NCBI GenBank assembly: GCA_963626675.1
Contig: CAVFXW010000001.1
Span: forward strand, 8,232-72,231
DNA from: Clostridium sp. CAG:452
Lineage (GTDB): Bacteria > Spirochaetota > Spirochaetia > Sphaerochaetales > Sphaerochaetaceae
Length of the DNA: 64,000 bases
Reading direction: 5' to 3'
Positions 19,561 through 59,812 of this stretch are shown here, one piece after another (position 1 is the stretch's first letter; each line of letters begins with the position of its first letter). Under the pieces are notes generated by a model, which saw only the letters and a list, made by a program, of their open reading frames with translations, did no database searches and was not told the origin of the DNA. Made by a program: the position numbers and the translations under genes.

Positions 19561-20483
19561 GAATATTATTCGCCGCAACCGATAAAATCGCTGTACCGCT
19601 TCTGGAAGCTCTTCATAAAAAAGGCTTATGTACGCTTGTCTTTACTTCTCCCGATGCTCCCAAAAAGAGAGGAAAGGGATTCGTTCCAACTCCTATCAAA
19701 GAAAAAGCACTTGAGCTGGGCCTCCCTGTATTTACTCCTGAGCACATTAATAAACCTGAGCGTGAGATAGTCGAATCATACTCTCCCGACACACTTCTTT
19801 CCTTCTCTTACGGAAGGATCTTCGGTCCGAAGTTTTTAGCTCTCTTCAAATACACATTTAATGTTCATCCTTCGCTTCTTCCGAAGTATCGTGGCTGCAG
19901 CCCGATCTTCAACGTTATAAAAAACGGAGAAAGGGAGAGCGCAATAACACTACAGAAGATATCGCTAGGAATTGATGAAGGCGATATATATTCCAGTTTT
20001 CCTCTTTCTCTTGACGGCAGCGAAACAAGTGAGAGCTTGGAGGATGTTATCGGGAGAGAGACGCCATCTTTTGTTCTCTCCACACTCGAGGCTGTAGACA
20101 ACATTATTCCTTATCCGCAGCGCGGGGAACCATCCTACACAGGATTTATAAAGAAAGAAGATGGTCGCATAGATTGGTTTGATAGCGCTTTTCACATTCA
20201 TTCTCTCATAAGAGCATGTTATCCATGGCCAAAGGCCTATTGCCTCTATGATGGAGAGCCACTATTTATAACAGGTGTCTACTCATCTGTATTTCTTCCG
20301 TTTGAGGAATCTTATGAGGCCCCCGGAACTGTTGTTGCTCTCGAAAAAGGAAAAGGCCTCAAGGTTGCAACAGGAAAGGGATACTTATACATTTCGCGAG
20401 TTCTTCCTCCTCAAAGAAAGGAGATGGATGCTGCCTCATATGTAAATGGTAACAGAGGAATAATTAAAGCAAAGCTCTCCTAG
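19557..20483 (+). CDS. fmt: Methionyl-tRNA formyltransferase
   Basis: Overlaps def by 4 nt. FNVHPSLLPKYRGCSPI motif. Classic def-fmt pair. Confidence 0.9.
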   Translation: MRILFAATDKIAVPLLEALHKKGLCTLVFTSPDAPKKRGKGFVPTPIKEKALELGLPVFTPEHINKPEREIVESYSPDTLLSFSYGRIFGPKFLALFKYTFNVHPSLLPKYRGCSPIFNVIKNGERESAITLQKISLGIDEGDIYSSFPLSLDGSETSESLEDVIGRETPSFVLSTLEAVDNIIPYPQRGEPSYTGFIKKEDGRIDWFDSAFHIHSLIRACYPWPKAYCLYDGEPLFITGVYSSVFLPFEESYEAPGTVVALEKGKGLKVATGKGYLYISRVLPPQRKEMDAASYVNGNRGIIKAKLS

Positions 20484-42508: not shown

Positions 42509-42693
42509 GAGGATAGTTTAAAGAAAGAATGAACTATAGTTAAGTATTCCTTCTCATTTTAGATCTAGATATGGCCGTGTAATCTAAATTGATTAGTGTC
42601 TCAGTATTATATGACAAGCGTTCTTGAAAAAAGGGTGGTTGTGAAGATATGGGATGTGATAGACTCATAAAAACATCTTTAAGGAGATTTGAT

Positions 42694-42990
42694 ATGGAAA
42701 TAAAGAAAGAAAATAATGGAAAAGAGCTTACCCTTTTTATCAAAGGAAGACTTGATACTACTACTTCTCCACTTCTTGAAAGGGAATTAAAGGAGAGTAT
42801 AAGTGGAGTTGAGAAACTCATTCTGGATTTTTCGTTACTTGAATATCTTTCATCGGCAGGACTAAGGGTAATCCTTGCGGCCCAGAAGGTTATGAATAGG
42901 CAGGGTGAGATGATTGTGAGAAATGTCAACGAGACAATCAGCGAGATCTTCGAAGTTACAGGTTTTGTCGACATCCTTACAATAGAGTGA
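42694..42990 (+). CDS. STAS-domain anti-sigma-factor-antagonist-like protein (SpoIIAA/RsbV type)
   Basis: LTLFIKGRLDTTTSPLLEREL...LILDFSLLEYLSSAGLRVIL, with Ser in the phosphorylatable position, then VTGFVDILTI. The ATG at 42694 is preceded by AAGGAG. Confidence 0.85.
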   Translation: MEIKKENNGKELTLFIKGRLDTTTSPLLERELKESISGVEKLILDFSLLEYLSSAGLRVILAAQKVMNRQGEMIVRNVNETISEIFEVTGFVDILTIE

Positions 42991-43021
42991 GCTCTGATTA
43001 ATGCTATAGAGAGGAGGAAAT

Positions 43022-44743
43022 GTGGATTCACGTTTTCAATACAATGCATACAGATACTTTCTCCTCTGGGGTATATTCTCTTCTCTTGTTCTGACTCTTT
43101 CATGCTTTGTAGACGCTACACTTGTGGGAAGGCTAACAGGGAGCGACGGCCTTGCAGCATATAATCTTATAACTCCTGTATTTCTCTTATATGCGCTACT
43201 AGGCGTTACGATAGGAGTCGGCGCGAATGTCAGGGTGGTTAAACTTATCGGAGAAGACAAGAAAGAAGAGGCTGATGAAGTATTTCACAGTGCCCTTACA
43301 CTCGGTTTAATCGTATCGACTCTACTGCTTTTCCCCTTACTCTTTAAAAGAAAGTATGCATCATTTCTTGGCTTGACTGGTAGTTTGTATCCTCTCTCCG
43401 TAGGGTATCTTAGTACGGCGCTTCTAGCTTCTCCTGCATTTGTAATGTATCACATACTATCGGCCTCTGTACGCTCGGATGGCAATCCCCGTCTATGCTT
43501 CTGGAGTTCTCTTGTTGTGTGTTTAACGAACATTACACTCGATATCGTATTCATGAAGGTAATGAAAATGGGTATAAAAGGAGCCGCGATAGCGTTGTGT
43601 ATAGGAGAGACTCTTGGCGTTTTTACACTTCTCTCGCATTTTTTCAGAAAAAGAGGTCTCCTCACTCTTTCGTTAAAGCTACCTCATTTTACCTTTATCA
43701 GAACGCTTTTCTTGAATGGATGCAGCGTCGGCTCTGCATATATCTTCTCTGCACTTGTAATGCTGTTTTTTAATACGATGCTTCTTTCATACGGAGGTAC
43801 AAATGGTGCTCTCTATGTTGCTATATATGGCATAATATATACAATGAACACGACTGTGGCTGCTGTTTATGACGGTAATGGAATGGCAATGCAGAGTGTC
43901 ATTTCGTTTCTTACGGGGGAGGCGGACAGCGAGGGAATTATTGCTGTATTGAAAAGAGCTATTATCACAATGATTGTATTAAGTGTTGTGATGGTCATTC
44001 TTTTTTCTTCTTTTTCGTCTTGCTTAATCGCCCTCTTTGGCATTACGGGAAACGATGATGTATATGCGTCTTCTCGCGCATTGAGGATCTTTCTCATAAG
44101 TGCGATCTTTACTTCTCTGAATACTACACTTACTTCATTCTGGCTCAGTATAGGGAGAACGAGACTCGCATCTCTTATGTCCCTTATTAGAAACTGCCTC
44201 CTTATTCTTCTATTTGGCTTTATTCTTGTTCCTGGGTATCTTGTTGACGGACTCGGATTAACATATATAGCATCAGAGGCGTCATCTCTCTTAATTGCTC
44301 TTATTGTTCTTTGGAAAAGTCCATCGAGAGAATATATGAAGAAGAAGTTCGGTACTATAGAGAGTTCGTTTGAAAAGACTTATCTAATAAAGAAGGAGAG
44401 TATGGGTGATATTTCTTCGGACATTGAAAGGATAAGTAGAGACTGGGATATAGACTATAAGAGATCATTTATGATCAATTTTATATTGGAAGAAATACTT
44501 CTCAACATTATTAAGTTTGCATTGTCGGAAAATAGCAAAAAAGAATACTACATCTCGATAAAGATTATAGCAAAAGATGAGGATTTATGTCTCCGTATAC
44601 GCGATAACGTCAAAGAGTACAATCCCTTCGATTGTGGCGGCGATGAGATTGACAGTGGTGTCTTAAAATTAATAAAGAAGAAGACGAAGTATTTGGAGTA
44701 TCAGAGAAAGATGATCTTCAATTACTTCTACACGATAATTTGA
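43022..44743 (+). CDS. MATE-family transporter fused to a C-terminal RsbW/SpoIIAB-like HATPase domain (degenerate ATP lid)
   Basis: The first ~440 aa are a 12-TM MATE (VDATLVGRLTGSDGLAAYNLITP...). The last ~130 aa carry N-box-like LEEILLNIIKFA, then IRDNVKEYNPFD (G1 without Gly) and IDSGVLKLIKK (weak G2). GTG start after GAGGAGG. Confidence 0.75.
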   Translation: MDSRFQYNAYRYFLLWGIFSSLVLTLSCFVDATLVGRLTGSDGLAAYNLITPVFLLYALLGVTIGVGANVRVVKLIGEDKKEEADEVFHSALTLGLIVSTLLLFPLLFKRKYASFLGLTGSLYPLSVGYLSTALLASPAFVMYHILSASVRSDGNPRLCFWSSLVVCLTNITLDIVFMKVMKMGIKGAAIALCIGETLGVFTLLSHFFRKRGLLTLSLKLPHFTFIRTLFLNGCSVGSAYIFSALVMLFFNTMLLSYGGTNGALYVAIYGIIYTMNTTVAAVYDGNGMAMQSVISFLTGEADSEGIIAVLKRAIITMIVLSVVMVILFSSFSSCLIALFGITGNDDVYASSRALRIFLISAIFTSLNTTLTSFWLSIGRTRLASLMSLIRNCLLILLFGFILVPGYLVDGLGLTYIASEASSLLIALIVLWKSPSREYMKKKFGTIESSFEKTYLIKKESMGDISSDIERISRDWDIDYKRSFMINFILEEILLNIIKFALSENSKKEYYISIKIIAKDEDLCLRIRDNVKEYNPFDCGGDEIDSGVLKLIKKKTKYLEYQRKMIFNYFYTII

Positions 44744-44750
44744 GGTCGAG

Positions 44751-46169
44751 ATGGAAAATCTGTTCATTTTTCAGAACAATGATGAGATAGAAAGGCTTTC
44801 TGTACAGAACAAGCTTCTCTTTCCATATGAAAAGAAGGTTATGGACAAACTTTTCTTAGGGAGGAGCAATCTCTCCGTATTGGATATAGGTGCTAATGAC
44901 GGCAGTAAAACGTCCTCTCTTTTTTCAGATAGCAGAGTAGGAAGAGTCATTGCACTTGAATACAATGCACTTCTTGTGGAGAAAGCCGAGAGACAGAAAA
45001 AGGATGACCGTTTTTCCTTCTATACAGTAGATGTGGAGAAGGCTGATTATAAGAGCTTATTGAAGAGAGTGATGAAAGAGTCTTCTCTAAAAGGTTTTGA
45101 TATCATATACATATCATTTGTTCTAATGCATCTTAAGGAAAGCGAAGCGCTTCTCATCTCTCTTAAGGAATTTCTCAATTGTGGAGGAACTATCGTTATT
45201 ACGGAAGCTGATGACCTCTCGTCGCATCTTACTCCCGATGAAAATGGACTTCTTGAGACATTTCTTTCGATTCTCGATAAGGACAAGTATTCTGGTAACC
45301 GACGTCTCGGACACGATATTGAAAATATTGTGAAAAGTGCGGGATATGGGGATATAACTATCCACTGTGATGGCGTTTCGGCTTTTCCTGGGGAGGAGGA
45401 GAAGAAAAAAGATATCTATAAAACATTCTTTTCATATCTACCGGAGGATGTTGATATTCTTTTGAGTGAAGATGAAAAAAACAGTGAATACAGAGAATGG
45501 AAGAAGTGGATAGATTCGAATTATTTGTCACTCAAAGAGCTTATAGAGAGTCCTTCGTCCTCAATTTCCATGGGGATGAAGATACTTACTTGTCGTAAGA
45601 CGATTTTCCATTCTGTTCCTCTTGAGGAAAGTGAAATAAACTCAACTCTTCTTCTTATGGATGAATGTGTCGGTAAGAACCTTTACAATAAAGATGATCT
45701 ATCTAAGGCAATTAAATCTTGCGATGAGTTCTTTATGCTTTATAAGACTGAAGAGGGTGTCATAGGCGGATACATATATTACTTTCTTACCGATAAGGAG
45801 ATGCTCTCTTCTTCAGGTAAAATACCACGTAAGCAGTTAGACAGTGTCTATAAAGGCAATAAGTGCGCACGTATTCAATCCGTTGGAGTGAGAAAAGAGT
45901 ATAGTGGGTTTGGTCTTGGAACGAGGATGATCAAAGAGGCTCTTCTTGACAACAAAATGCGTGGTGTGGAGGCTGTATATTGTGTATGCTGGGCGCCAAA
46001 TGGAGAGGTTCCGCTTGCTTTCCCTCTCTATCAATCGGGATTTTCCCATCTCATGAAAATCAGAGACTACTGGGCTGAAGAAGAGAGCCTTGTCTGCCCG
46101 TATTGCTCTGGTCGCTGTCACTGCAACGCTGAAGTTTATTATAAAATATTGAAGGAGGAGTGTAGATGA
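44751..46169 (+). CDS. Class I SAM methyltransferase - GNAT acetyltransferase fusion with C-terminal CxxCx3CxC cluster
   Basis: MTase motif I VLDIGANDGSKTS and post-I VIALEYN. GNAT motif A IQSVGVRKEYSGFGLGTRMIKEAL. The tail is LVCPYCSGRCHCNAEVY. Confidence 0.7.
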   Translation: MENLFIFQNNDEIERLSVQNKLLFPYEKKVMDKLFLGRSNLSVLDIGANDGSKTSSLFSDSRVGRVIALEYNALLVEKAERQKKDDRFSFYTVDVEKADYKSLLKRVMKESSLKGFDIIYISFVLMHLKESEALLISLKEFLNCGGTIVITEADDLSSHLTPDENGLLETFLSILDKDKYSGNRRLGHDIENIVKSAGYGDITIHCDGVSAFPGEEEKKKDIYKTFFSYLPEDVDILLSEDEKNSEYREWKKWIDSNYLSLKELIESPSSSISMGMKILTCRKTIFHSVPLEESEINSTLLLMDECVGKNLYNKDDLSKAIKSCDEFFMLYKTEEGVIGGYIYYFLTDKEMLSSSGKIPRKQLDSVYKGNKCARIQSVGVRKEYSGFGLGTRMIKEALLDNKMRGVEAVYCVCWAPNGEVPLAFPLYQSGFSHLMKIRDYWAEEESLVCPYCSGRCHCNAEVYYKILKEECR

Positions 46170-48187
46170 AACTCAAGCTCTTACCCAAATTCATAATTTC
46201 ACTATGTGTTGTAGGTCTCGTTTTTATAGTGAGTGTCTCTCTTTTCGGTTATCTTACATCTAAAAGATATCTTGAGGAACTTTATGCAGAGCGTGTAATG
46301 ACGAACAGTAATACGATTGCTTCTCTTCTCGATAAAGAGGCTGTAAAGACTATCATTAGTGAAGGCGGGGAGAATACACAAGAGTACAAGACTATGTACA
46401 ATCTTTTCCAAGCCCTTAAAAAGGATGGTGATATTACATATCTATCTCTTGTTGTTCCCGGCAAGGACAGTGTTACATTTTACATAGATGCATTCGTTCC
46501 CGAGATGGGAGATAAAGAATCGGCTTTTCTTCCTTATGGGGCTGAGATTTTCTATAGAGATGCTGCCAATCCAGATGATCCTAACGACCTCGAGAAATAC
46601 TATGAGATATGGAATGCATATAAATTAAATAAAGGTCTCGATAAGCCACTTGTGACGGACAATAAGTATGGTTATAACTACACCGGCATTTCCGTTGTGC
46701 TCGATGAAAATGGAAAGGCCATTGCTGAGGTTCAATATATTCTGGACATGAGCGAGGTGAGATCATACCTCTTCTCATTCCTCAATAACATGATTTTGAT
46801 CTCATTTATAATAAGCGCCGTAACAATGGCTGCATACATTTTCTTTGTAAGAAAGATGGTAACTTTCCCTATTGGAAAGCTGACGAGTTTTACAGAGGAA
46901 ATAACAAAGACGAAAGATTTCGAGAATCAGAAAATAGAGATTAATACGGGGGATGAAATAGAGGCGCTCTCTTCTTCGTTTAATTTCATGCTTTTAGAGC
47001 TTGAAGAATATATAAAGAACCTTTCGATAGTTACACGAGAGAAGGAGAGGATAGGAACGGAACTTGATGTTGCACGTCATATACAGAGGAGCATGCTTCC
47101 GCACGCGATCCCTACATTACCTTGCCTCAATAAAATCGATATATATGCCACAATGACGAGTGCAAAGGAGGTCGGCGGCGACTTCTATGACTATTTTCTC
47201 ATCGATGATGATCACCTTGCCCTAGTTATGGCCGATGTTTCGGGTAAAGGAGTACCGGCTGCTCTCTTTATGGCGATAAGTAAGAGTCTTATTAAATCTG
47301 CTCTACAGAGCACCTTAAGTCCAAAAGAGGTATTAGAGAAGGTTAATAACCAGCTTTGTGAGAACAATGATGCAGGGATGTTTGTTACTGTATGGCTCGG
47401 TATACTCGATATAAAAAGTGGCGTTATGAAATGTGCCAACGCAGGACACGAGTTCCCCGTAGTTAAGCGCAATAACGGAAAATGGGAGCTCTATAAGGAT
47501 AAACACGGCTTTGTTCTTGCGGGCATGGAGGCATCGAAATACGTAGAGTATGAACTTAAATTCGATAAAGGCGATAAGCTCTTTGTCTATACCGACGGTG
47601 TTCCCGAGGCAACTGATGGTAACCTCGTCCTCTACGGGACAAAGAGAATGATAGACGCTCTCGATAGAACAGAGGGCCTATCTAGTCGTGAGAGCCTTGA
47701 GTATATTCAGAGTGACGTAAACAATTTTGTTGGCCATGTGGATCAATTTGATGATATAACAATGATGATGCTTGAGATAAAAGATTGTCCTCTTATAAAG
47801 GAGATTACCGTTACTCCGACACCAAAGTGTGTAGAGAGTGTCACATCATTTATTGAGGATATCCTATCTGATAGCGGGGCGCCATTTAAGACGATAGCAC
47901 AGGTGAATGTTGCAATAGACGAAATATTATCGAATATAATCTCTTACAGCGGGGCTGAAAAAGTGACTGTCAAATGTGCTTCTTCTCTCAGTGAGATAAA
48001 GATTGAGTTTTCAGATGATGGTAAACCATATGATCCGACTTCTTCTCCCGATCCTGATACCTCACTATCGGTGGAAGAGAGGAAGCTTGGAGGATTGGGT
48101 ATATTAATGGTTAAAAAGATAATGGACGATATAACATACATGTATAAGGAAAATAAGAACATCCTATCAATCAAGAAGGGCTGGTAA
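46166..48187 (+). CDS. Sensor PP2C (SpoIIE-type) phosphatase: TM - extracytoplasmic Cache-like domain - TM - HAMP - PP2C - C-terminal RsbW-like kinase domain
   Basis: Two TM segments flank about 170 aa. HAMP-like PIGKLTSFTEEI...IEALSSSFNFMLLEL. PP2C motifs EVGGDFYDY, LVMADVSGKGVPAALFM, YTDGVPEA and FDDITMMMLE. The kinase part has DEILSNII (N box), FSDDGKPYDP (G1) and GGLGILMVKK (G2). Confidence 0.85.
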   Translation: MKLKLLPKFIISLCVVGLVFIVSVSLFGYLTSKRYLEELYAERVMTNSNTIASLLDKEAVKTIISEGGENTQEYKTMYNLFQALKKDGDITYLSLVVPGKDSVTFYIDAFVPEMGDKESAFLPYGAEIFYRDAANPDDPNDLEKYYEIWNAYKLNKGLDKPLVTDNKYGYNYTGISVVLDENGKAIAEVQYILDMSEVRSYLFSFLNNMILISFIISAVTMAAYIFFVRKMVTFPIGKLTSFTEEITKTKDFENQKIEINTGDEIEALSSSFNFMLLELEEYIKNLSIVTREKERIGTELDVARHIQRSMLPHAIPTLPCLNKIDIYATMTSAKEVGGDFYDYFLIDDDHLALVMADVSGKGVPAALFMAISKSLIKSALQSTLSPKEVLEKVNNQLCENNDAGMFVTVWLGILDIKSGVMKCANAGHEFPVVKRNNGKWELYKDKHGFVLAGMEASKYVEYELKFDKGDKLFVYTDGVPEATDGNLVLYGTKRMIDALDRTEGLSSRESLEYIQSDVNNFVGHVDQFDDITMMMLEIKDCPLIKEITVTPTPKCVESVTSFIEDILSDSGAPFKTIAQVNVAIDEILSNIISYSGAEKVTVKCASSLSEIKIEFSDDGKPYDPTSSPDPDTSLSVEERKLGGLGILMVKKIMDDITYMYKENKNILSIKKGW

Positions 48188-48190
48188 AAG

Positions 48191-48661
48191 ATGAATGAAA
48201 ATCTGTTTCGTAAATCAAGTGTTGACAGGGTAAATTCCCCCGAAGAGCTCAATGACTACATCCGTGTCGCTTCTCCAAGCGTATGGCTTATTCTTTCTGC
48301 TATAGTTGCATTCCTCGTTGGAGTTGTAATCTGGGGAATATGGGGAAATATAGAGGTGACAGTAAAGGCCCCTGTAGTAGTAAAGGATGGTGTAGTGACT
48401 TGCTACGTAGATGATGTTTCATCTCTTGAGGAGGCCCTGGACGTTCGTATTGACGGAAAAATTGGCAGTATAAAGAGTATAAAGCGAACGCCGGTTGAGA
48501 TCACAGATGACTATGACCCGTATTTTCTTTATATCTCATCGTACTCGTCGGGATCATTTGCCTATCCAGTCACCGTTGAAATAAGTGGGCTTGAAGACGG
48601 AGTATACAGCTCGGAGATTGTGAAAGAGAGAATCAATCCAATCTACTTTATCATCCATTAG
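48191..48661 (+). CDS. Miniature HlyD-type (NHLM bacteriocin-system secretion protein-like) membrane-anchored protein
   Basis: LFRKSSVDRVNSPEELNDYIRVASPSVWLILSAIVAFLVGVVIWGIWGNIEV matches the characteristic N-terminus of NHLM/NHLP-system HlyD proteins. Only 156 aa. It starts 3 nt after the PP2C stop, and the next gene follows 9 nt later. Confidence 0.6.
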   Translation: MNENLFRKSSVDRVNSPEELNDYIRVASPSVWLILSAIVAFLVGVVIWGIWGNIEVTVKAPVVVKDGVVTCYVDDVSSLEEALDVRIDGKIGSIKSIKRTPVEITDDYDPYFLYISSYSSGSFAYPVTVEISGLEDGVYSSEIVKERINPIYFIIH

Positions 48662-48670
48662 GGGGAGATT

Positions 48671-50854
48671 ATGGAAAAGAAGAAGAGGTCTGCTCCTCCT
48701 ATAAAGGGTGGCGTTGCCAAAGTTCCTGTAGTTATACAGTTGGAGGCATTGGAATGTGGAGCTGCCGCTCTTACGATGATTCTTGAGTATTACGGTAAGT
48801 GGATTCCTCTTGAGAAGGTTCGTGCAGACTGTGGTGTCTCTAGAGACGGTTCGAATGCAAAGAATATTCTCAAGGCGGCACGCTCCTATGGCTTAAAAGC
48901 GAAAGGCTATAGATATGAGCCGGAAAAGCTAAAGGAGGATGGCGTCTTTCCGTGTATAATACACTGGAACTTTAATCATTTCGTGGTTTTATGTGGTTTT
49001 AAGGGAAATAAGGCCGTTATAAATGATCCTGCAAAGGGAACATACTCTGTTTCGTTTGAGACATTCGATAAATCATTTACCGGAATATGTCTCATGATGG
49101 AGCCTGGAGAGGATTTTGTCCCTGAGGGAAAAAAGAAGAGTGTAGCTTCATTTATAAAGAAAAAACTCAAGGGTACTGGTAGTTCATTCTCTCTCGTTGT
49201 CATTACGACTTTCATCTCATTTCTTATCGGCATCATAACGCCCGGATTTTCGAATGTCTTTGCAGATTATCTCCTCTCTGGAAAGAATATGGAATGGTTC
49301 ATGCCTTTCATGTACGGTATAACTGCAATATCGATCATACAGATAATAGTTGGGATAATACAGTCGGTGTATACTCTCAAGGTTAACGGAAAGATAGCGA
49401 TAGTCGCAAACAGCGAGTACATGTGGCATGTTCTGCGTCTTCCTATGGAGTTTTTCTCTGTTCGTATGGCCGGGGATATACAGGCGCGTCGGAGCCAGAA
49501 CGAGTCGATCGCTGGGACTATAATTAATACTTTTGCCCCTCTTTCAATTGAGGCTTTCATGCTTTTCTTCTACCTATTTGTAATGCTGAGGTATAGTATA
49601 GTATTGTCGTTTGTTGGGATTCTTTCGGTATTTTTAAATATGGCGGTGAGCTCATATATATCGAAAAAGAGAGTCAATTCCACTCGTGTTGCAAGTAGAG
49701 ATAACGGCAAGTTATATGGTGCGACGGTTGCGGGAATCGAGATGATAGAGTCGATTAAGTCCACTGGAGGAGAGAACGGTTTCTTCGAGAAGTGGTCGGG
49801 TTATCAGGCGAGTGTAAACTCCGGACAGGTGAAATGCACACGTCTTAATGCACTCTTTGGTCTCATACCTTCTCTAATAAGCATGCTTACCAATAATATA
49901 GTCCTATTGGGGGGTGTCTATCTCTGTCAGAATGGCGCATGGACAGTCGGTATGATAAGTGCGTTCTCCGGCTTTCTTTCCTCCTTTCTCTCTCCAGCAA
50001 TGCTCTTTGTCTCGGCATCGCAATCTCTTTTGGAGATGCGTACGAGTATGGAGAGGATTGAGGATGTTATGGAATATAAGACCGATATCCCGTACGCACT
50101 AGAAGGTGTAAAGGACGATGTAGAATACGATAAACTCAGCGGCAAAATAGAGCTTAGGAATGTTACATTCGGCTACTCACGTCTTGGAGAACCTCTTATT
50201 AAAGATTTCTCTATGACGCTTGAGAGAGGTCAGACTGTGGCCTTTGTTGGGCCATCTGGCTCGGGAAAATCGACATTGGGTAAGTTGATATCTGGGCTAT
50301 ATAAACCTTGGAGTGGAGAGATTCTCTTCGATGGAAAGCCTATAAGTGAAATAAACCATTCGGTATTCACCGGCTCAGTTAGCGTTGTGGATCAAGATAT
50401 TACGCTCTTTGAGGATACAATCGCCAATAATATAAAGATGTGGGACGACTCGATAGAGGACTTTGAAATGATACTTGCTGCAAGGGACGCCCAGATCCAC
50501 AGCGATATAATGCTTAGAGATGGAGGATACTCATATAAACTAATGGAGGGAGGAAAGGATCTATCGGGCGGACAGAGACAGAGGCTTGAGATAGCACGAG
50601 TACTAGCAGAAGATCCAACAATTATCATCATGGATGAGGCAACAAGTGCCTTAGATGCAAAGACGGAGTATTGTGTTGTCTCGTCAATTAGAAATAGAGG
50701 TATAACGACCATTGTTATCGCTCATAGACTCAGCACAATCAGGGATGCTGATGAAATCATCGTTCTCGACAACGGATTAGTTGTGGAGAGGGGAACTCAT
50801 GATGCTCTCTATAAGAAGGGCGGAGTTTATACTTCGCTCGTTTCCAACGAGTAA
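48671..50854 (+). CDS. Bacteriocin-processing ABC exporter with N-terminal C39 cysteine peptidase domain (NHLM ABC1-like)
   Basis: C39 catalytic residues in QLEALECGAAAL (Cys29), WNFNHFVVL (His) and INDPAKG (Asp). Six TM helices. Walker [10 protein letters not shown], signature LSGGQRQR, Walker B IIIMDEATSALD. Confidence 0.9.
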   Translation: MEKKKRSAPPIKGGVAKVPVVIQLEALECGAAALTMILEYYGKWIPLEKVRADCGVSRDGSNAKNILKAARSYGLKAKGYRYEPEKLKEDGVFPCIIHWNFNHFVVLCGFKGNKAVINDPAKGTYSVSFETFDKSFTGICLMMEPGEDFVPEGKKKSVASFIKKKLKGTGSSFSLVVITTFISFLIGIITPGFSNVFADYLLSGKNMEWFMPFMYGITAISIIQIIVGIIQSVYTLKVNGKIAIVANSEYMWHVLRLPMEFFSVRMAGDIQARRSQNESIAGTIINTFAPLSIEAFMLFFYLFVMLRYSIVLSFVGILSVFLNMAVSSYISKKRVNSTRVASRDNGKLYGATVAGIEMIESIKSTGGENGFFEKWSGYQASVNSGQVKCTRLNALFGLIPSLISMLTNNIVLLGGVYLCQNGAWTVGMISAFSGFLSSFLSPAMLFVSASQSLLEMRTSMERIEDVMEYKTDIPYALEGVKDDVEYDKLSGKIELRNVTFGYSRLGEPLIKDFSMTLERGQTVAFVGPSGSGKSTLGKLISGLYKPWSGEILFDGKPISEINHSVFTGSVSVVDQDITLFEDTIANNIKMWDDSIEDFEMILAARDAQIHSDIMLRDGGYSYKLMEGGKDLSGGQRQRLEIARVLAEDPTIIIMDEATSALDAKTEYCVVSSIRNRGITTIVIAHRLSTIRDADEIIVLDNGLVVERGTHDALYKKGGVYTSLVSNE

Positions 50855-50865
50855 GGAAGGATACT

Positions 50866-53049: not shown

Positions 53050-53101
53050 TTCTCTTACAATACGGGAAATTATGCGTAATAATAATTAAAAGGATGAAAG
53101 A

Positions 53102-53533
53102 ATGAATAATTTAGAAAATGATTTTATTGAAAAAGTAAAGAATGCGAGAAGTGTTGATGATATCATAAATATTGCACACGAGAATGGAATTGAAATTAGA
53201 AGAGAGCAGGCACAGTTCTATTTTAACAATATGAAACAAGGCGAACTAACAGATGATGAGATATCATCTGTCTCAGGAGGCGGTTGTAGTAGCAGTAGAA
53301 GTTCCGTATCCTCATCAAAGAGCGATTTACGCCTCGGTACAGTCGTCACTCTTAAAAACAACGGACATACGTTCTCCTCTTCTGCTGCTTCGACAATTTG
53401 TAGTAACCCGAATTGTGGAAGCAACACGTTTTATATTTTGAGAAAAATAAGCGGCACTGATTATTATCTAATGGAATGTACCAAATGTAAGTGGACCTAT
53501 AATGCTTTAAGAGACAATATAACTGCTATTTAA
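53102..53533 (+). CDS. RiPP/bacteriocin precursor with Nif11-type leader and double-glycine cleavage motif; 83-aa Ser-rich, Cys-containing core
   Basis: The leader is MNNLENDFIEKVKNARSVDDIINIAHENGIEIRREQ...GELTDDEISSVSGG (Nif11 pattern F.EKVK....S.....IA.E.G.EI, then ELTDDE..SVSGG). The core has Cys at residues 62, 100, 105, 126 and 129. It sits between the exporter and an rSAM/SPASM gene. Confidence 0.8.
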   Translation: MNNLENDFIEKVKNARSVDDIINIAHENGIEIRREQAQFYFNNMKQGELTDDEISSVSGGGCSSSRSSVSSSKSDLRLGTVVTLKNNGHTFSSSAASTICSNPNCGSNTFYILRKISGTDYYLMECTKCKWTYNALRDNITAI

Positions 53534-53578
53534 TAGGGTTATCCTCTTTTCAAGAGCCACTCTTGCCGAGAAAGAATA

Positions 53579-54991
53579 ATGTATTACGTAATTAATCCGA
53601 ATATAGGAATAAGGAGTTGGTGGCGCTCTCCGTACTCTTATTACATGAAAGGTGTGAGGAATGCGTTTAGACTTACTCAAGAAGAATTTGAATTCCTTTA
53701 TAAGTGTGATGGTATTACAAATCTTGAGGAAGGAAGCCTTTCGAATAGAATGCTCAATCGAGCCATGATTATACCTTGTAAGAAGGGAGAAATGTCTCTC
53801 TCCTCATGGCAGAGAAAGATCTGTGACAATCGATATTTTCCTGCCATGAATTGGATGATTACCGGTAAATGCAACTACAATTGTCTTCATTGTTTCAATG
53901 CGTCAGATAATGCGCCTCTCATGAGTGAGTTCACGCTTAAAGAAGCAGAGCGCCTGATGGATGAAGCCGAGGAATGTGGAATCAACGCCTTTACAATAAC
54001 AGGTGGTGAGCCCATGTGTCATAAATCTTTCTTTGATATAATCGAGGGGATATATAAGAGAGGAATGTTCGTCGAAGAGCTTAATACGAATGGCTATTAT
54101 ATAACCCAGGATGCTCTCGATTCATTCAAAGCTATAGGATGCCATCCTCTCATAAAGATATCGTTTGATGGAGTTGCCCACCATGATTGGCTGAGAAACC
54201 GCCCTGGCGCAGAGGAGGATGCCCTCAGGGCAATAAAACTATCTGTTGAAAACGGCTTTCGGGTCAAAGTTCAGAGTAATGTTCATCGCAATAATGTCGA
54301 AAGTATGATTACCTCTGCACACCTTCTTAACAAAATTGGTGTCAGCGAGATGCGCCTTATTCGCACAACGGAAGCACCACGCTGGATAAAGAACGGAGGA
54401 TCAAATACACTCACCCTTTCTGAGTATTTCGACAGAATGCTCTCTTTTATAGAAGAATATTCAGCCTCGAGAGACAAAATGGAGATCGACATATGGCAGC
54501 TCTTACATCTTTACCCAGAAAGTAAATCCTATAGGCCACGTGCCGTAGAGTGCATCGAGGAAGAGTATAGGGACTCTCTTCCTGTGTGTCGCGGAAACAG
54601 GGGTATGGTCGCTGTGGCTGCTAACGGGAACTTATTTCCATGCCTTCAGATGTCAGGATACTACGAAACGCACAATTGGAAACTGGGCAATGTGAAAGAG
54701 AACGGCCTCAAGAGATATCTTCAGCATGGAGATTACCTTGAAGAAGTATGTACTACGGTAAAGGATCTCAAGGACAGTAATGAAAAATGCCGCCGGTGCG
54801 AATGGTTTAAGTATTGCGTCGGAGGCTGCAGGGCTCTAGCTCTTCTATTCAGTGGCGACAAAAAGGGTAGCGATATATCAAAATGTCTTTTCTTTAAAGG
54901 CGGTTATATGGAGAAGCTCAAGAATGTAATGAAAGACTGGCGTGATGTAAGCGGAGTTATGAAAAGTAGAGAAAATGTGAACATTACTTGA
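53579..54991 (+). CDS. Radical SAM / SPASM-domain peptide maturase with N-terminal RRE-like extension
   Basis: CNYNCLHC (Cys98/102/105) rSAM cluster and TITGGEP. SPASM motif CRGNRGMVAVAANGNLFPC (GX4C) ... CRRCEWFKYCVGGC (CX2CX5CX3C) plus a trailing Cys. The first ~90 aa carry RLTQEEFEFLYKCDGITNLEE, which is PqqD/RRE-like. Confidence 0.9.
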   Translation: MYYVINPNIGIRSWWRSPYSYYMKGVRNAFRLTQEEFEFLYKCDGITNLEEGSLSNRMLNRAMIIPCKKGEMSLSSWQRKICDNRYFPAMNWMITGKCNYNCLHCFNASDNAPLMSEFTLKEAERLMDEAEECGINAFTITGGEPMCHKSFFDIIEGIYKRGMFVEELNTNGYYITQDALDSFKAIGCHPLIKISFDGVAHHDWLRNRPGAEEDALRAIKLSVENGFRVKVQSNVHRNNVESMITSAHLLNKIGVSEMRLIRTTEAPRWIKNGGSNTLTLSEYFDRMLSFIEEYSASRDKMEIDIWQLLHLYPESKSYRPRAVECIEEEYRDSLPVCRGNRGMVAVAANGNLFPCLQMSGYYETHNWKLGNVKENGLKRYLQHGDYLEEVCTTVKDLKDSNEKCRRCEWFKYCVGGCRALALLFSGDKKGSDISKCLFFKGGYMEKLKNVMKDWRDVSGVMKSRENVNIT

Positions 54992-55054
54992 AGTTTCTGG
55001 TTTTCTTTTCATTTGTTATTTACCTTGAATTTAAAATAGGGATATTTTTAAACA

Positions 55055-56476
55055 ATGAAAAAGAAATTGCTAATTACCATTTTATTGGCAATAGCTGTGC
55101 TTATTACAATCAACGCAGCAACTGTCGATGAAATACTTGAGAGCGCGAAGAAGACAAGTCCGTCATATCAAAATATTTTATTGAACTATCAAAACGGGCT
55201 TCTTACAGTCGCTGAACTTGGAAAAGATGATGAAATCGGGGTTGCACTTTCTGTGACGGTTGACCCGTTGAGCGAGGTCTACTCTGGCGGTAGCACTACA
55301 CCATCTTCACTTACTGATACAAGTAGTAAAGGGCTTACAGCCACGCCTACAGCCCAAATAACGTTTCCTAATGATGGGAATACTACAATCAGTGGAGGCG
55401 CGAGGATTTCAACAAGATATGAAGATGGCTCTACTTCAATAAGTGGCGAGGTCGGGGTTTCTCATACTTTTGATTTTTCAGGATATTCTAGTAAGCATTC
55501 TGAGGATTTGAAATATGCCTCTACAAAATACAGTACGGAGCTTACATACAGTAAAGCAGAGCTCTCGTTTGAGACGAGTGTCCTTAAAATGATTTCATCG
55601 ATTCTTAGCGCTGAAAGTTCAATTAAGAGGGCTCAATTCAATCTTAAAAAACAGCAGACAGCATTCGATAAACTTACTGCTTTAAAAACATATTCAGAAG
55701 ATTCGAGTGTTTATAAGAGCACTCTCAATACACTCAATGCTCTTGAGAGTTCACTCTCTTCGACAGAGGAGCAATATAATAGCCTTCTTTCAAGATACAA
55801 GACTCTTACCGGCCTAGCATGGGAGGGCGTTGATGTGGGAGAGCCTCCCGTACTTACGCTGACAACATACGAGAATGGTAATACAGAAGTTATGATAGAA
55901 TCTTTGAATGCCGAAAGCAGTGAAGAATCTTATAAGAGTACGCTTGCTTCTTCAAAGCCCTCAAAGCTTGTAACTTCGTTATCTCTTTCGGCATCAAGTA
56001 GCAAGTATGATATTTCGGGTTCTTTGCAATATGCCGGTAACAATTGGAGTATTACTGCAAAGCCTGGGGTAAGTATATCTAGTGACGGCGATACAACACC
56101 GAGCCTTACATTAGCGGGAAGCTGGAAGAATAATGAAGGCTCTATCACATCTGGCTCTGCACTTAGTAGTGCTTTGAACAATGCCAAAGTAGCAGCCAAT
56201 AATTACCTTGAGGCACTTTCAACATATGAGGAGAATGCAACGAATTATGCTCTCGAGATTGTAGAATGGAATACCAAACTCTCTCAAGCTAAAGCCGATT
56301 TGGAGTATAAAGAGACTCTTCTCGAGAGTGCCCAGGCTCTTTATGACTTGGGTTTGAATACATCGGAGGAACTCGAGAGTGCCGAGCTCGAGTACACTCT
56401 AAGTAAGACCGACTATGATAAGGTGATAATCGAAGGATTATCTCTAGAACGTGATTTAGCAATATTTGCACTATAA
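55055..56476 (+). CDS. TolC-like outer-membrane efflux protein (divergent, Ser/Thr-rich inserts)
   Basis: Signal MKKKLLITILLAIAVLITINA. OEP-like start TVDEILESAKKTSPSYQNILLNYQNG. Two helical repeats, the second ending LESAQALYDLGLNTSEELESAELEY. Precedes an adaptor/ABC set. Confidence 0.6.
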   Translation: MKKKLLITILLAIAVLITINAATVDEILESAKKTSPSYQNILLNYQNGLLTVAELGKDDEIGVALSVTVDPLSEVYSGGSTTPSSLTDTSSKGLTATPTAQITFPNDGNTTISGGARISTRYEDGSTSISGEVGVSHTFDFSGYSSKHSEDLKYASTKYSTELTYSKAELSFETSVLKMISSILSAESSIKRAQFNLKKQQTAFDKLTALKTYSEDSSVYKSTLNTLNALESSLSSTEEQYNSLLSRYKTLTGLAWEGVDVGEPPVLTLTTYENGNTEVMIESLNAESSEESYKSTLASSKPSKLVTSLSLSASSSKYDISGSLQYAGNNWSITAKPGVSISSDGDTTPSLTLAGSWKNNEGSITSGSALSSALNNAKVAANNYLEALSTYEENATNYALEIVEWNTKLSQAKADLEYKETLLESAQALYDLGLNTSEELESAELEYTLSKTDYDKVIIEGLSLERDLAIFAL

Positions 56477-56493
56477 GGAACAGAAAATAGATT

Positions 56494-57588
56494 ATGGATA
56501 AGAAAGAAGAAATATTGACAGAAAGTGAAAGACAAGAGAAGAAATTGAGGGAAGCTCAAAAAGCAAGAAAGAGAAGAAAAAGAGTAAAGACATTCCTAGG
56601 GTGGATTATTGTTATATTCATTGTAGCGCTTGTTCTCGTTTGGTTCTTAAAAATGAAGAAGGACAGTGAGGCTCAAATTGCTGCTCTTCAGAATGCATCG
56701 AATGAGATTGAATATACTGTGACAAGAACGAATTACGTAAAGTCTATAGATGTTTCCGGTAATGTCGTAGCATATGACAAACAGGAAGCGAACTTCCGCT
56801 CCGCAGGTGCTGTAACGGGTGTGTTTGTAAAAGTCGGGGACAAGGTCGAGAAGGGACAGATTCTTGCGACTATAGACTCAACCGAGCAGCAATATAATCT
56901 CAAGCAGATCGAAAATCAGATTGCAGAGGCCAAAATTACAGGTTCTTTACAGACTCTCGAGTCTTTGGAGCTAAAGAAAAGTAATGCAGAAGAGCAGCTA
57001 TCATATACAACACTTACAGCGAACTTTGATGGAATTGTATCGAAGGTAAGTATAAGTGAGAATGACTATGTTACGGCTGGAACTGCAGTCATTACGGTTA
57101 TTGATGTTTCGAAACTCAAGACTACTGTCGAAATCGATGAAATCGATATGCAATACATAGAAGAGAATCAGACAGCGACACTCTCGTTTGATTCTCTTCC
57201 TGGTGAGAGCGTTGTTGCATATGTTTCATACATCCCGATGGAAGGAAGATATACAACACAGGGAATTGGTGTTGTTGATGTAGAGATGACAATAGAAAAT
57301 CCTCCGTCAGGACTCAGAACTGGATTTACATTCACCGGTTCGATTGATCTAGAACAGGATGTGAATATTCTTCTTATTCCGTCTTCATCTGTCTCCTCCG
57401 AGCGTGGCGGAAGAACTTTTGTTACTGTAAAGAAGGCGGACGGCCAGAGTGAGAGAAGAAGTGTGACGGTTTCGTATCTAGGAGAAGGATACAGCGAAGT
57501 ACTCTCAGGCCTCAGTGAGGGAGAAGTCATTGTTTATTCTCAGTCATCCGGTGGTGGCATGGGCTTCATGATGAGAGGAGGATTTTAA
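56494..57588 (+). CDS. Efflux periplasmic adaptor (HlyD/MacA family)
   Basis: N-terminal TM. Lipoyl-like GAVTGVFVKVGDKVEKGQILATID, a coiled coil, then LTANFDGIVSKV and beta-barrel/MPD parts. Confidence 0.8.
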   Translation: MDKKEEILTESERQEKKLREAQKARKRRKRVKTFLGWIIVIFIVALVLVWFLKMKKDSEAQIAALQNASNEIEYTVTRTNYVKSIDVSGNVVAYDKQEANFRSAGAVTGVFVKVGDKVEKGQILATIDSTEQQYNLKQIENQIAEAKITGSLQTLESLELKKSNAEEQLSYTTLTANFDGIVSKVSISENDYVTAGTAVITVIDVSKLKTTVEIDEIDMQYIEENQTATLSFDSLPGESVVAYVSYIPMEGRYTTQGIGVVDVEMTIENPPSGLRTGFTFTGSIDLEQDVNILLIPSSSVSSERGGRTFVTVKKADGQSERRSVTVSYLGEGYSEVLSGLSEGEVIVYSQSSGGGMGFMMRGGF

Positions 57589-58283
57589 TGGCGTCTAGTG
57601 TTATAGAGCTTCAGAATGTCAGGCGCTATTACCTCGTGGGTGAATACGTTGTCAAAGCTCTTGATGATGTATCGCTTACCATAGATAGAGGCTCATTTAC
57701 CGCAATAATGGGACCTAGCGGAAGTGGTAAGTCTACTCTTATGAACCTTATCGGTTGTCTTGATACTCCAACAAGCGGGTATATTACAATCGGTGGTGAG
57801 CTTACAAACGGAATGGACGAGTCTGAGCTTGCATTTTTGAGAAATCAGAAGATAGGCTTTGTCTTCCAACAGTTTAATTTGCTTGGAAAACTCAATGCTC
57901 TGGAGAATGTTATGACACCGATGCTCTATTGTCTTGTCCCTCACAAGGAGAGAAAGGAGAGAGCTGAGGCAATGCTGGAAAAGGTAGGGCTCAAAGATAG
58001 AATGAAACATCTTCCGAGCGAGCTATCGGGTGGGCAGAAGCAGAGAGTTGCTATTGCACGCGCTCTTGTCAACGATCCCGATATTCTCCTAGCCGATGAG
58101 CCTACTGGAGCTCTTGATAGTAGAACGGGCCATGAGGTTATGGGGCTTTTTCAGGAATTGAATGAAGAAGGACGTACAATCGTCTTTGTTACACATGATA
58201 GAAAATTGGGAATGCAATGTGCAGAACAGGTTTTCATTAAAGATGGAAGGATAGTAGAGGAAGATGTTACTCGAGAACTTTAA
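57588..58283 (+). CDS. MacB/LolD-type ABC transporter ATP-binding protein
   Basis: [47 protein letters not shown] and VTHD motifs. 1-nt overlap (TAATG) with the adaptor gene. Confidence 0.9.
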
Positions 58284-59436
58284 ACTAGCAATTAAGAGTA
58301 TGGTAACAAGTAAGATGAGAACATTTCTTTCTCTTCTTGGTATTGTGATAGGAGTCGGTTCGGTTGTAGCTATTATGACGCTCGGTGAGAGTGTGAAGGG
58401 CTCGATCAATGATGAGATGAACCTCTCGGGTATGGACCTTGTTACTCTCAGTAACACGGGATCAAATACAATTTTTGATGAAGAACTAGGCTATACAATC
58501 AAGGAAAAGATACTCGGAATAGATGATGTTGCGATCCAGACTGTTGGAAATGCAACGATTAGACATGCCCAGGAATCGGCAAGCGCAACTGTATATGGTG
58601 TATCCTCAACCTTTGGTGATATACAGCAGCTGGAAATAATGGACGGTTCTTTCTTCTCGAAGGAAGACAATATGGAGAAGGCTCAGGTTGTAGTGCTTGG
58701 TTATGATGTTGCAATGGATCTCTTCCCCGGAGGAGATGCTCTCGGAAGTTATGTATCAATCTTCAGAACTCAAGCGAAGACATATAAGGTAATTGCTGTA
58801 CTCGAAGACACTTCAGAATCGACTATGTCTGATACAAACAGCAATGTTTATATACCTTACCACACATACAGCCAGAATATTAGGAAGATAAACAGTGTCC
58901 CGAGGTACTACTTTAAAATCAATGAAGACTATTCTGCAACCGATGTATCATCATCGATAAAATCCTATATGCAGAATATAGCATCATCGAATGAGTATGT
59001 GGTCTCCACTGCGCAGGAGTTTGTCGATATGGCAAACTCGATTATGGAGACGCTTACGACATTCCTATCCGCAATTGCCGCTATCTCATTGATCGTCGGT
59101 GGAATAGGGATTATGAATATAATGCTTGTCACGGTTGTCGAGAGAACAAGAGAGATTGGTGTGAGAAAGGCTCTCGGCGCGACCCCGAAGACCATAAGGC
59201 ATCAATTCCTTGTTGAGGCACTTGTTTTATCGGTATGTGGCGGTATATTTGGAATAATATTTGGGATTATTGTAAGTTATGTTGTTGCGACTGCGCTTTC
59301 ATATAGCCTCAAGTTATCGCTGTTGTCTATTGCGCTTTCTATTGGATTCTCATCGGCTGTCGGTATATTCTTCGGCTGGTATCCTGCAGCTAAGGCATCG
59401 TCGCTTGATCCTATTCAGGCACTATCATATGAGTAA
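58264..59436 (+). CDS. MacB-type ABC permease (MacB periplasmic domain + FtsX 4-TM)
   Basis: LAIKSMVTSKMRTFLSLLGIVIGVGSVV start, a large periplasmic loop, C-terminal FtsX part ERTREIGVRKALGA...WYPAAKASSLDPIQALSYE. Confidence 0.85.
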   Translation: MLLENFKLAIKSMVTSKMRTFLSLLGIVIGVGSVVAIMTLGESVKGSINDEMNLSGMDLVTLSNTGSNTIFDEELGYTIKEKILGIDDVAIQTVGNATIRHAQESASATVYGVSSTFGDIQQLEIMDGSFFSKEDNMEKAQVVVLGYDVAMDLFPGGDALGSYVSIFRTQAKTYKVIAVLEDTSESTMSDTNSNVYIPYHTYSQNIRKINSVPRYYFKINEDYSATDVSSSIKSYMQNIASSNEYVVSTAQEFVDMANSIMETLTTFLSAIAAISLIVGGIGIMNIMLVTVVERTREIGVRKALGATPKTIRHQFLVEALVLSVCGGIFGIIFGIIVSYVVATALSYSLKLSLLSIALSIGFSSAVGIFFGWYPAAKASSLDPIQALSYE

Positions 59437-59692
59437 GGCTAGGGTGAACTACCGCCCTCCTAAAGGGATTGAGGCTTCGTGCTCAATAGACTAAAGTTGG
59501 CTGCTTCGGTTTTTAATAACCGAGGCAACTAGAGCTTCAATCTCCACACGCTTACCCGGTGCGTCCCACACCTACATGATTGTTGTACAAGAGATACGAT
59601 GGTTTTATCAATAACAACTCATGTGCCAGACTTGAAGGCGATGGCATCTTTCTTGCTCAATTTATGTAAATTATCGGACGGAAGGTATGATT
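59437..59692 (+). ncRNA. Candidate structured leader / cis-regulatory RNA (family not recognised)
   Basis: A 370-nt ORF-free spacer that is visibly more G+C-rich than other spacers. Hairpin 59496-59529 (GTTG/CAAC plus CTTCGGTT/AACCGAGG) is nested in a helix of 59465-59477 with 59532-59545. Further small stems follow, then a terminator-like hairpin before the ABC operon. Confidence 0.35.
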
Positions 59693-59736
59693 GCTGCTTG
59701 TTTTCTAGGTCTTGTGGAGACAAGCAGCTTTTAATT
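59693..59736 (+). terminator. Intrinsic-terminator-like hairpin (possible attenuator/expression platform, or the end of the upstream 13-gene array)
   Basis: GCTGCTTGT (59693-59701) pairs perfectly with ACAAGCAGC (59720-59728) and is followed by TTTTAATT. It lies 77 nt upstream of the ATG at 59813. Confidence 0.55.
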
Positions 59737-59812
59737 GAATCTCATCGCGTTTGATATTGATTATAAAATAACAGGTTAGTAAAATCTAACCAAGTAATGT
59801 GAGGTGATATCT

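Follow-up and report, generated by a model that had tools for sequence, protein, structure and literature searches.

The locus described here raises the question of whether thirteen tightly spaced genes on one strand (g01-g13), found in a 64-kb spirochaete window (the whole stretch of DNA that was analyzed, 64,000 nucleotides), work as a single signal-gated system or are several systems lying side by side. The array joins a signaling module (S, g01-g04), a module for the biosynthesis and export of a peptide that is made on ribosomes and modified after its translation (RiPP; R, g05-g09), and a TolC-membrane-fusion protein-MacB pump (T, g10-g13). A preliminary description saw in it one signal-gated production and export unit. 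The coupling holds up as real and is conserved, but the array is a mosaic that has promoters inside it, lacks the usual sigma factor, and contains signaling genes that are not peptide-specific. We consider it somewhat probable that the three modules, each with a history of its own, have stayed together in one gut spirochaete clade and that the resident MacAB-TolC pump serves the S-R cassette for exit through the outer membrane or for immunity.

The strand and spacing of the genes do not decide the question. The thirteen + strand genes and their gaps, as first described (31, 7, -4, 3, 9, 11, 52, 45, 63, 17, -1, and -20 nucleotides (nt)), agree exactly with the listing of open reading frames (ORFs). 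A terminator scan gives only two + strand candidates in the array, both weak and intragenic (43720 and 46754), and none that is intergenic, in keeping with the statement that no terminator-like hairpin occurs before 59693. The three longest internal spacers fold no better than shuffled sequences (z = -1.3, -0.6, and +0.4). Moreover, 46 of the 60 long ORFs of the window are on the + strand, a co-directional run of at least 13 occurs in 29-34% of random arrangements, the + strand run extends past the array to the window end, and other tight arrays are common in the window (e.g. 8523-17933). An operon deduced from co-directionality and spacing alone was rejected, a run of this length being found in about 30% of shuffles. 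Because such runs are frequent in random arrangements, the weight of the finding lies on comparative evidence and not on strand or spacing. Misassembly is unlikely because independent assemblies share the sequence of both the hslO-to-g06 and the g04-to-g13 stretches, which are identical in them.

Signaling and peptide export as a recurrent unit

A genome scan with the exporter g06 returned 80 exporter-anchored loci, nearly all from Clostridial metagenome-assembled genomes (MAGs) and with 64-83% identity, to which the window proteins were then compared by tblastn. In 34 of them at least 8 kb are available on both sides, and these are referred to as fully flanked. The STAS gene (58-79% identity) and/or the PP2C-kinase gene lies beside g05-g06-g07 in 51 of the 80 loci and in 26 of the 34 fully flanked ones, there at most 10 kb from the exporter; in the latter set, a sigma factor is present at 13 loci, a close radical SAM gene at 11, and TolC at none. 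Tandem precursors of 110-160 amino acids (aa), with the same leader (...GELSDDELDNVAGGGC) and cysteine-rich cores, reach up to 16 per locus. Also, the 3-nt g04/g05 junction pointed out for the window (TGG TAA AAG ATG) is found at 48182-48193, and the corresponding phosphatase/kinase-to-adaptor junction measures between -4 and +3 nt in the spirochaete relatives, as against some 33 nt in Clostridia. With this tight junction kept and the 26 fully flanked loci, the proposed link between signaling and RiPP export is borne out as a recurrent unit.

In a neighbor-joining tree, the exporter copies of the spirochaetes fall into a single clade, which lies within the Clostridial copies. This nesting, together with 65-77% identity across phyla, indicates horizontal transfer, and we read S-R as a horizontally acquired cassette of monoderm type, whose closest relatives are those of gut Clostridia, which have no outer membrane. 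Two loci recorded as Alistipes communis (L004) and Bacteroidaceae bacterium (L006), with exporter genes 77-81% identical to those of the window, group with the sister loci of the spirochaete clade; misbinning is possible, as is a further horizontal transfer.

The signaling genes do not behave as a dedicated gate of this peptide, as had been supposed. In a metagenome sample anchored on STAS, R is present in only one of 44 loci (of at least 5 kb), the constant neighbors of STAS being a MATE transporter with the same C-terminal domain as g02 and a PP2C phosphatase with or without a kinase. Because R accompanies so few STAS-anchored loci, S is better seen as a general free-standing module often recruited by R. 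Besides, the usual sigma output is absent from the window.

A resident pump beside an acquired cassette

By their component families, g10-g13 are a MacAB-TolC-type tripartite pump. Between the window's own flanks (RlmL-hslO and NMT1-type ABC genes), T is found alone, with no S-R, in L088/L089 and L093/L094 (hslO 64-70% identity), and it is also found alone at other loci (L090 and L091). As L088/L089 and L093/L094 carry T without S-R between these flanks, T predates S-R at the hslO locus. A metagenome scan with the TolC-like protein gave no match.

The adjacency of R and T recurs in related spirochaetes. In L182, the radical SAM gene (76% identity) is followed after 75 nt by the TolC-membrane-fusion protein-MacB genes, and in L183 (75% identity), the same genes follow after 58 nt; the genes downstream of T differ in these two loci. 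Moreover, L175 and L182 overlap with 99.7% nucleotide identity, which gives a composite with the order hslO, MFS-PNP, small ORF-sigma-S-R (10 precursors)-T. Thus a second spirochaete species, judged from two overlapping contigs, has the full S-R-T arrangement, and a third has R-T, so that the modules are not adjacent in this genome only, the outcome under which the idea of a coupled system would have had to be given up.

In a further set of loci (L083-L087), S abuts T. From 24 nt before the radical SAM stop of L183 onward, these loci are 82% identical to it in nucleotides, and a sigma fragment is kept in them. Because of this identity and the sigma remnant, they are seen as the same locus after loss of R, and their S-T adjacency was rejected as an independent coupling: it is a relic, the L183 locus minus R.

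The adaptor of the peptide exporter bears on the route through the outer membrane. The gene g05, introduced as HlyD-like, is a 156-aa remnant that aligns only with positions 1-52 of the 421 positions of TIGR03794 (40.1 bits, the cutoff of 156.2 not being reached), and it is without the lipoyl and alpha-hairpin domains by which membrane-fusion proteins reach TolC. Since g05 is too short to reach an outer-membrane duct, another outer-membrane route would be needed. The short adaptor is found in 74 of the 80 exporter loci. The best fold matches of its AlphaFold2 (AF2) model in the PDB are the beta-barrel domains of MacA, EmrA, and BesA, which are weak (E 0.08-0.6); the likeness of the model to adaptor beta-barrels is suggestive only.

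Promoters within the array and the missing sigma factor

An element TTTACC-16-GAT(A/T)AT lies about 8 nt before the TolC ATG in eight loci (the window, L083, L085, L088, L090, L091, L182, and L183), whose upstream genes differ. Because it is present whatever gene lies upstream, it is best read as the pump's own promoter. Its end, 8 nt before the ATG in the window, means that the TolC transcript may be leaderless or may carry a very short leader.

The 64-kb window has a single relaxed match to the motif of the extracytoplasmic function (ECF) type found in relatives, and this is a second promoter-like site, directly upstream of the precursor gene g08; an alternative reading is sigma-70-like (CTTACA-18-AATAAT). 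In the relatives, this motif, TCTAACA(A/G)A-N12-CGTATATAC, is found before both the sigma operon and the first precursors, the arrangement that an autoregulated ECF regulon would have; there, the sigma factor, with a small leader-like ORF, would drive the precursors from a TAACA-N15-CGTATATA promoter. A leader-like ORF of about 60 aa and an ECF-type sigma factor (Sigma70_r2, Sigma70_r4, and Sigma70_ECF) precede STAS in L175, L180, L003, and L006, and about 28 Clostridial loci by raw tblastn hits, or 26 of the 80 exporter-anchored loci by a stricter count, have the same pair placed between their second exporter gene and the precursors. By tblastn, neither the sigma factor nor the small ORF of L175/L180 has a match in the 64-kb window, and no sigma factor or other defined output partner is encoded there with the partner-switching module.

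With a promoter before TolC in eight loci, a promoter-like site before the precursor, and a pump that is ancestral without S-R, it is unlikely that all 13 genes are one transcription and translation unit.

Other observations concern this regulation. A good copy of the ECF motif, TCTAACAAA-N12-CGTATGTAC, occurs at L091:9800-9830 (identical in L092), about 200 nt ahead of a TolC-MacAB operon that R does not precede, where about 0.01 chance matches are expected. Judged from this motif copy, the membership of T in the sigma regulon is a lead, not proof. In the small ORF-sigma pairs at L175:3707-4505 (sigma factor 3879-4505), L180:653-1445, and L003:3239-3911, the small ORF, which comes first, has a leader-like end, ...ELxDDELDVSAAGEP, and the C-terminal tail of the sigma factor itself, DDDLASVPGG or EEDLSSVSGG, resembles the double-glycine leader end of the precursors. 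These tails hint that the C39 exporter or the maturase might recognize the regulator. Finally, a palindrome, AATGTGAACATT, at 54974-54985 overlaps the last radical SAM codons and is also present upstream of TolC in L090 and L182 (ATTGTGAACATT in L182). Because it lies at different distances from the -35 element in different loci, an operator placed in register with the promoter was rejected; the palindrome could be a regulator site or a coincidence.

Alternative explanations

The alternative that survives best is that the two parts are incidental neighbors: S-R would have landed once in the divergent promoter region of hslO and TolC, the pump would be housekeeping efflux with no peptide role, and the adjacency would merely be unbroken. 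The pump does stand alone with the same flanks (L088, L093) and elsewhere (L090, L091), it retains its own conserved promoter, S-R works without any T in monoderm Clostridia, and in one MAG, S-R and a T copy are on different contigs. However, R-T adjacency is kept in three diverged lineages (radical SAM 75-76% and TolC 54-58% identity) though the genes on both outer sides have changed, and the exporter's adaptor is too short for an outer-membrane duct. Moreover, a sigma-type promoter motif is found upstream of a T operon lacking upstream R, and MacB-type pumps flank R in two monoderm loci (L014 and L015). We therefore rate incidental adjacency as possible but rather unlikely.

Somewhat more doubtful is that the cassette is a decaying remnant, which has lost here its sigma factor and most precursors and is on the way out, as in L083-L087, where R is lost and only a sigma fragment is left (L083 and L084 also being without a STAS match). 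This loss series, one precursor as against 10-11 in L180 and L182, a precursor promoter off consensus at key positions, and the absence of the sigma factor and the small ORF from the 64-kb window would all fit such a decay. Yet all 13 ORFs are intact and of full length relative to their homologues, their sequence is the same in independent assemblies, and the catalytic motifs are retained: g09 has the CX3CX2C and SPASM cysteines, g06 its C39 domain, and g04 its kinase boxes. Besides, another part of the genome could encode the sigma factor, and the precursor promoter is also sigma-70-like.

Lastly, we find it quite improbable that a single operon lets one extracytoplasmic signal, acting from the PP2C-kinase via STAS, gate peptide production and export via both transporters, since the small gaps, the lack of internal terminators, the tight and conserved S-R junction, and the presence of S with R in 26 of 34 loci are outweighed by conserved internal promoters before precursor and TolC, a pump older than S-R at this locus, a STAS family and PP2C-kinase mostly found without R, and the absence from the window of the sigma factor linking switch to transcription.

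The preferred reading, an acquired S-R cassette that uses the resident pump, also has points against it. First, T exists without R in relatives and keeps its own promoter, from which it follows that T has peptide-independent functions. Second, S is almost always without R in the STAS-anchored sample, and its link to the peptide is possibly loose. Third, the resemblance in fold between g05 and adaptor beta-barrels lacks statistical significance (E at least 0.08). Fourth, the MAG GCA_963623755.1 has S-R (L178) and the T operon (L091) on different contigs; in this case, the L178 contig ends inside g06, and a second T copy downstream of R is possible. Moreover, all S-R-T arrays could derive from a single insertion, their conservation being partly inheritance rather than selection. 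Finally, the cassette may be decaying here, given the sigma factor missing from the window, the degenerate precursor promoter, and the single precursor.

Proposed mechanism

According to the preferred reading, the precursor g08 would be modified by the radical SAM/SPASM protein g09, as the gene content suggests. Then, from the families to which they belong, the C39 domain of g06 would cleave behind the double glycine, and g06/g07, together with the minimal adaptor g05, would carry the peptide across the inner membrane. Because g05 is without the domains that reach TolC, the peptide would be released into the periplasm, where the MacAB-TolC-type pump would expel it through the outer membrane or keep it off the producer's envelope.

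On the signaling side, g04 would set the phosphorylation state of STAS upon an extracytoplasmic signal, and unphosphorylated STAS would bind an RsbW-like domain. In relatives, this domain would be the anti-sigma kinase, and binding of STAS would free the ECF sigma factor; in the window, STAS would most likely target the kinase domain of g04 and the pseudo-kinase on MATE. The transcripts are probably nested: read-through from upstream is possible, there being no terminator in between, and further starts would come from the promoters at about 53055 and 55019.

A wider, tentative proposal, which we judge rather doubtful, is that STAS/PP2C-kinase is a general post-translational transport switch, in which the highly conserved 98-aa STAS protein would dock, depending on its phosphorylation, on degenerate RsbW-like domains tethered to transporters (MATE here; elsewhere an amino-acid-type ABC ATPase and possibly an SDF symporter). 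Together with the Clostridial RiPP cassette, it would have been co-opted into the two-step secretion of a radical SAM-modified zinc-ribbon-like small protein, from a peptidase-containing ABC transporter to the periplasm and from there outward by MacAB-TolC.

Features of the array

The features are collected in Table 1; coordinates of the genes are those of the ORF listing.

Table 1. Genes and other elements of the array and of its boundaries (for pLDDT, the predicted local distance difference test score of the model is given)
Feature	Coordinates	Strand	Evidence and remarks
g01-g13 array	42694-59436	all +	Three modules: S = g01-g04, R = g05-g09, T = g10-g13
Divergent spacer hslO/STAS	42509..42693	.	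185 nt; of the sigma-factor gene found before STAS in relatives, no trace
g01, 98-aa STAS protein, anti-sigma-antagonist type	42694 (42649)..42990	+	PF01740 55 bits; TIGR00377 69.8 bits (cutoff 53.45)
g02, MATE with C-terminal cytoplasmic HATPase_c_2-like domain (about 44339-44740)	43022..44743	+	PF01554 E = 1.5e-31
g03, fused class-I SAM methyltransferase and GNAT acetyltransferase	44751..46169	+	Pfam
g04, transmembrane segment / about 170-aa extracytoplasmic domain / transmembrane segment / HAMP / PP2C (SpoIIE-type) / RsbW-like HATPase_c_2 kinase	46166..48187	+	Pfam
g05, 156-aa exporter accessory protein	48191..48661	+	Transmembrane helix and about 100-aa beta-barrel (AF2 model, pLDDT 84)
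g06, peptidase-C39/permease/ATPase exporter, NHLP family ABC1	48671..50854	+	TIGR03796 887 bits (cutoff 853.3); PF03412 E = 9.6e-36
g07, partner permease/ATPase, NHLP family ABC2	50866..53049	+	TIGR03797 747.1 bits (cutoff 709.4); without active peptidase domain
Precursor promoter-like site TTACA-15-CGTAA	53055..53079	+	Degenerate copy of the ECF-type motif, directly upstream of g08
g08, 143-aa precursor, Nif11-like leader	53102..53533	+	Leader end SVSGG, residues 56-60; TIGR03798 24.9 bits (cutoff 32.3)
g09, radical SAM/SPASM peptide maturase	53579..54991	+	PF04055 70.5 bits and PF13186 29.1 bits, both above cutoffs
Pump promoter-like element TTTACC-16-GATATT	55019..55046	+	Ends 8 nt before the TolC ATG
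g10, TolC-like outer-membrane factor, Treponema TP096X family	55055..56476	+	PF02321 27.4 bits (cutoff 22); PF27489 TP096X_N
g11, MacA-like periplasmic adaptor (membrane-fusion protein)	56494..57588	+	TIGR01730 153.8 bits (cutoff 94.9); PF16576
g12, MacB-type ABC ATPase, separate polypeptide	57588..58283	+	Aligns with MacB residues 3-227, E = 7.7e-76
g13, MacB-type permease, periplasmic core and FtsX	58264..59436	+	PF12704 115 bits, E = 6.7e-33; PF02687 73 bits, E = 2.9e-20
First strong terminator-like hairpin past the array	59693..59736	+	Stem 59693-59728, then TTTTAATT; -21.1 kcal/mol, z = -4.06

The domain assignments first made from the sequence alone agree with Pfam and NCBIfam, and the divergent spacer has the length described, the hslO start being at 42508 on the - strand. 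The start codon of the STAS gene at 42694 is backed by an upstream AAGGAG and by 98-aa homologues that begin with MEIKKE.

In module S, the identity of g01 to its spirochaete and Clostridial homologues is 58-86%, and its SSAGL motif, with the phosphorylatable serine, is conserved. The invariant residues are Y51, S53, S54, A55, G56, L57, R58, and V59, with S53/S54 present in 22 homologues and aligned in a sequence comparison with the DSSGLG motif of SpoIIAA. The C-terminal domain of g02 gives alone a weak HATPase_c_2 match; a profile of 18 family members, of which 16 match PF13581, aligns with the g04 kinase domain by hhalign with 98.3% probability (E = 2.3e-14). Of its ATP boxes, the N box is kept, and the G1 and G2 boxes are changed from DDG to DNV and from GGLG to DSGV, respectively. 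Because these boxes are degenerate, the domain is a probable pseudo-kinase, and the description of a transporter-tethered pseudo-kinase is supported. The domain has matches in 111 representative clusters, about 40 of which are proteins of 560-608 aa with the match at the C-terminus. A second MATE gene of the window (20480-21865, - strand) is without the kinase-like domain and is a possible internal control for its contribution.

The two halves of g03 are separate genes in L083, L085, L175, and L180. In g04, the phosphatase and kinase domains are matched with 153 bits (PF07228, E = 1.1e-44) and 66 bits (PF13581, E = 3.9e-18), HAMP is weak, and the kinase boxes are all intact (N box DEILSN, G1 box DDGKPYD, and G2 box GGLG). 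Its sensor domain has no match in Pfam, and a single-sequence AF2 model of it was unusable (pLDDT 46).

Transporters other than MATE may carry comparable regions at a STAS-anchored metagenome locus. An amino-acid-type ABC ATPase with a C-terminal HATPase_c_2-like domain (L116:6645-7799, Pfam E = 1.2e-5) adjoins the same STAS family, and an SDF-family symporter (L116:13162-14748) has a 130-aa N-terminal extension with a similar EEIL motif. When compared by hhalign with the SDF extension and with a 210-aa neighbor protein, the MATE C-terminal profile reached a probability of 31%, and the fusion theme is not established for either. It may be that the tethering of kinase-like domains to transporters is more widespread.

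In module R, the g08 leader is homologous to that of dozens of tandem precursors at related loci. The g08 core, of about 83 aa, begins with GC and shows a zinc-ribbon-like CX4C...CX2C pattern, which appears at 53285-53530 as CSNPNC...(20 aa)...CTKC between predicted beta-strands. This pattern is shared by several related-locus precursors; others have a pattern of 6-8 cysteines ending in ...YE.G.WLCNH. The maturase g09 contains CNYNCLHC (CX3CX2C) and a C-terminal SPASM cysteine cluster and falls in no named maturase family, its best NCBIfam matches being of 68-113 bits as against cutoffs of 340-725. Its closest PDB sequences are at E of at least 2e-10, and its 1589 homologues at E of at most 1e-60 are named only radical SAM protein.

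In module T, PF27489 (TP096X_N) is recorded both on g10 and on its homologues, and the full-length MacB cutoff is inapplicable to g12 because the ATPase is a separate gene. Past the array, the 367-nt spacer between the MacB permease and an NMT1/THI5-like binding-protein gene (59437-59803) is strongly structured (RNAfold z = -4.7) and holds, toward its end, the terminator-like hairpin at 59693. No Rfam family was found in this spacer or in the window at gathering and E-value thresholds, and the spacer has no homologue among the fetched loci. It may be the leader or a riboswitch of the downstream ABC importer.

Comparison with known systems

All parts of the array are of known families, and their combination is absent from the searchable literature; in the open literature, which was incompletely covered, no description was found of partner switching or of a MATE-pseudokinase tied to RiPP clusters.

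Partner switching is known from RsbU-RsbV-RsbW-sigmaB and SpoIIE-SpoIIAA-SpoIIAB-sigmaF, and in sigma-less form from SiaABC and HsbR-HsbA. Module S resembles these systems in that its phosphatase is a PP2C, its STAS protein keeps the conserved serine, and its kinase is an RsbW-type HATPase_c_2. Unlike in them, a single membrane protein here combines phosphatase and kinase, preceded by an extracytoplasmic domain and HAMP, MATE carries a second, degenerate kinase-like domain as a tethered part, the window holds no sigma factor, and the sigma factor associated in relatives is of the ECF type and not of group 3. The existence of a MATE family with a pseudo-kinase domain suggests transport gating by partner switching.

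A RiPP cluster with a dedicated ECF sigma factor is that of microbisporicin (MibX/MibW). The relatives of our locus resemble it in an autoregulated ECF-type sigma factor, whose motif lies before the sigma operon itself and before the precursor genes. However, the partner of the sigma factor is here apparently an RsbW/STAS/PP2C switch with a small leader-like ORF, rather than a classical membrane anti-sigma factor, and in the window itself, the sigma factor is absent. These clusters would thus be, apparently, under an ECF sigma factor and an RsbW/STAS/PP2C switch, not a two-component system.

The NHLP/Nif11 precursor families and their export cluster TIGR03794/TIGR03796/TIGR03797 were described by Haft et al. 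2010 (PMC2887384), in whose text STAS, phosphatase, and anti-sigma have no occurrences. The window agrees with that system in g06 and g07, which are above the TIGR03796 and TIGR03797 cutoffs, and in the exporter genes beside the precursor; the double-glycine leader of the precursor looks Nif11-like, with a TIGR03798 score below the cutoff. On the other hand, the adaptor is a 156-aa remnant instead of an HlyD-like protein of about 420 aa, the maturase is an unnamed radical SAM/SPASM protein and not a cyclodehydratase or LanM, the cores are of 60-90 aa and cysteine-rich, and a partner-switching module is present, with an ECF sigma factor in relatives. A large uncharacterized radical SAM RiPP family of gut bacteria comes to light, and cultured carriers of S-R exist, e.g. 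Anaerocolumna sedimenticola CBA3638 (locus L070; NZ_CP048000.1, 4,232,765-4,254,936).

For the pump, E. coli MacAB-TolC exports from the periplasm the enterotoxin STII, a small disulfide-bonded peptide, and YknXYZ protects against SDP (PMC5985334). In T. pallidum, the operon tp0962-tp0969 combines a MacB that is split and a single adaptor with TP0966-TP0969, such a pump being a core operon of treponemes (PMC8407342). The operon of the window has the same composition in that a TP096X-family factor, a MacA-like adaptor, and a MacB permease with periplasmic core are in one operon, with the ATPase as a separate polypeptide, as in T. pallidum. It differs from the latter in having one permease and one outer-membrane factor versus two and four, and in lying directly downstream of a RiPP cassette. 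A monoderm peptide-export cassette may have been made compatible with a diderm cell by parking before a resident MacAB-TolC pump and not by evolving a full-length adaptor, which, if true, would be a natural example of two-step RiPP secretion.

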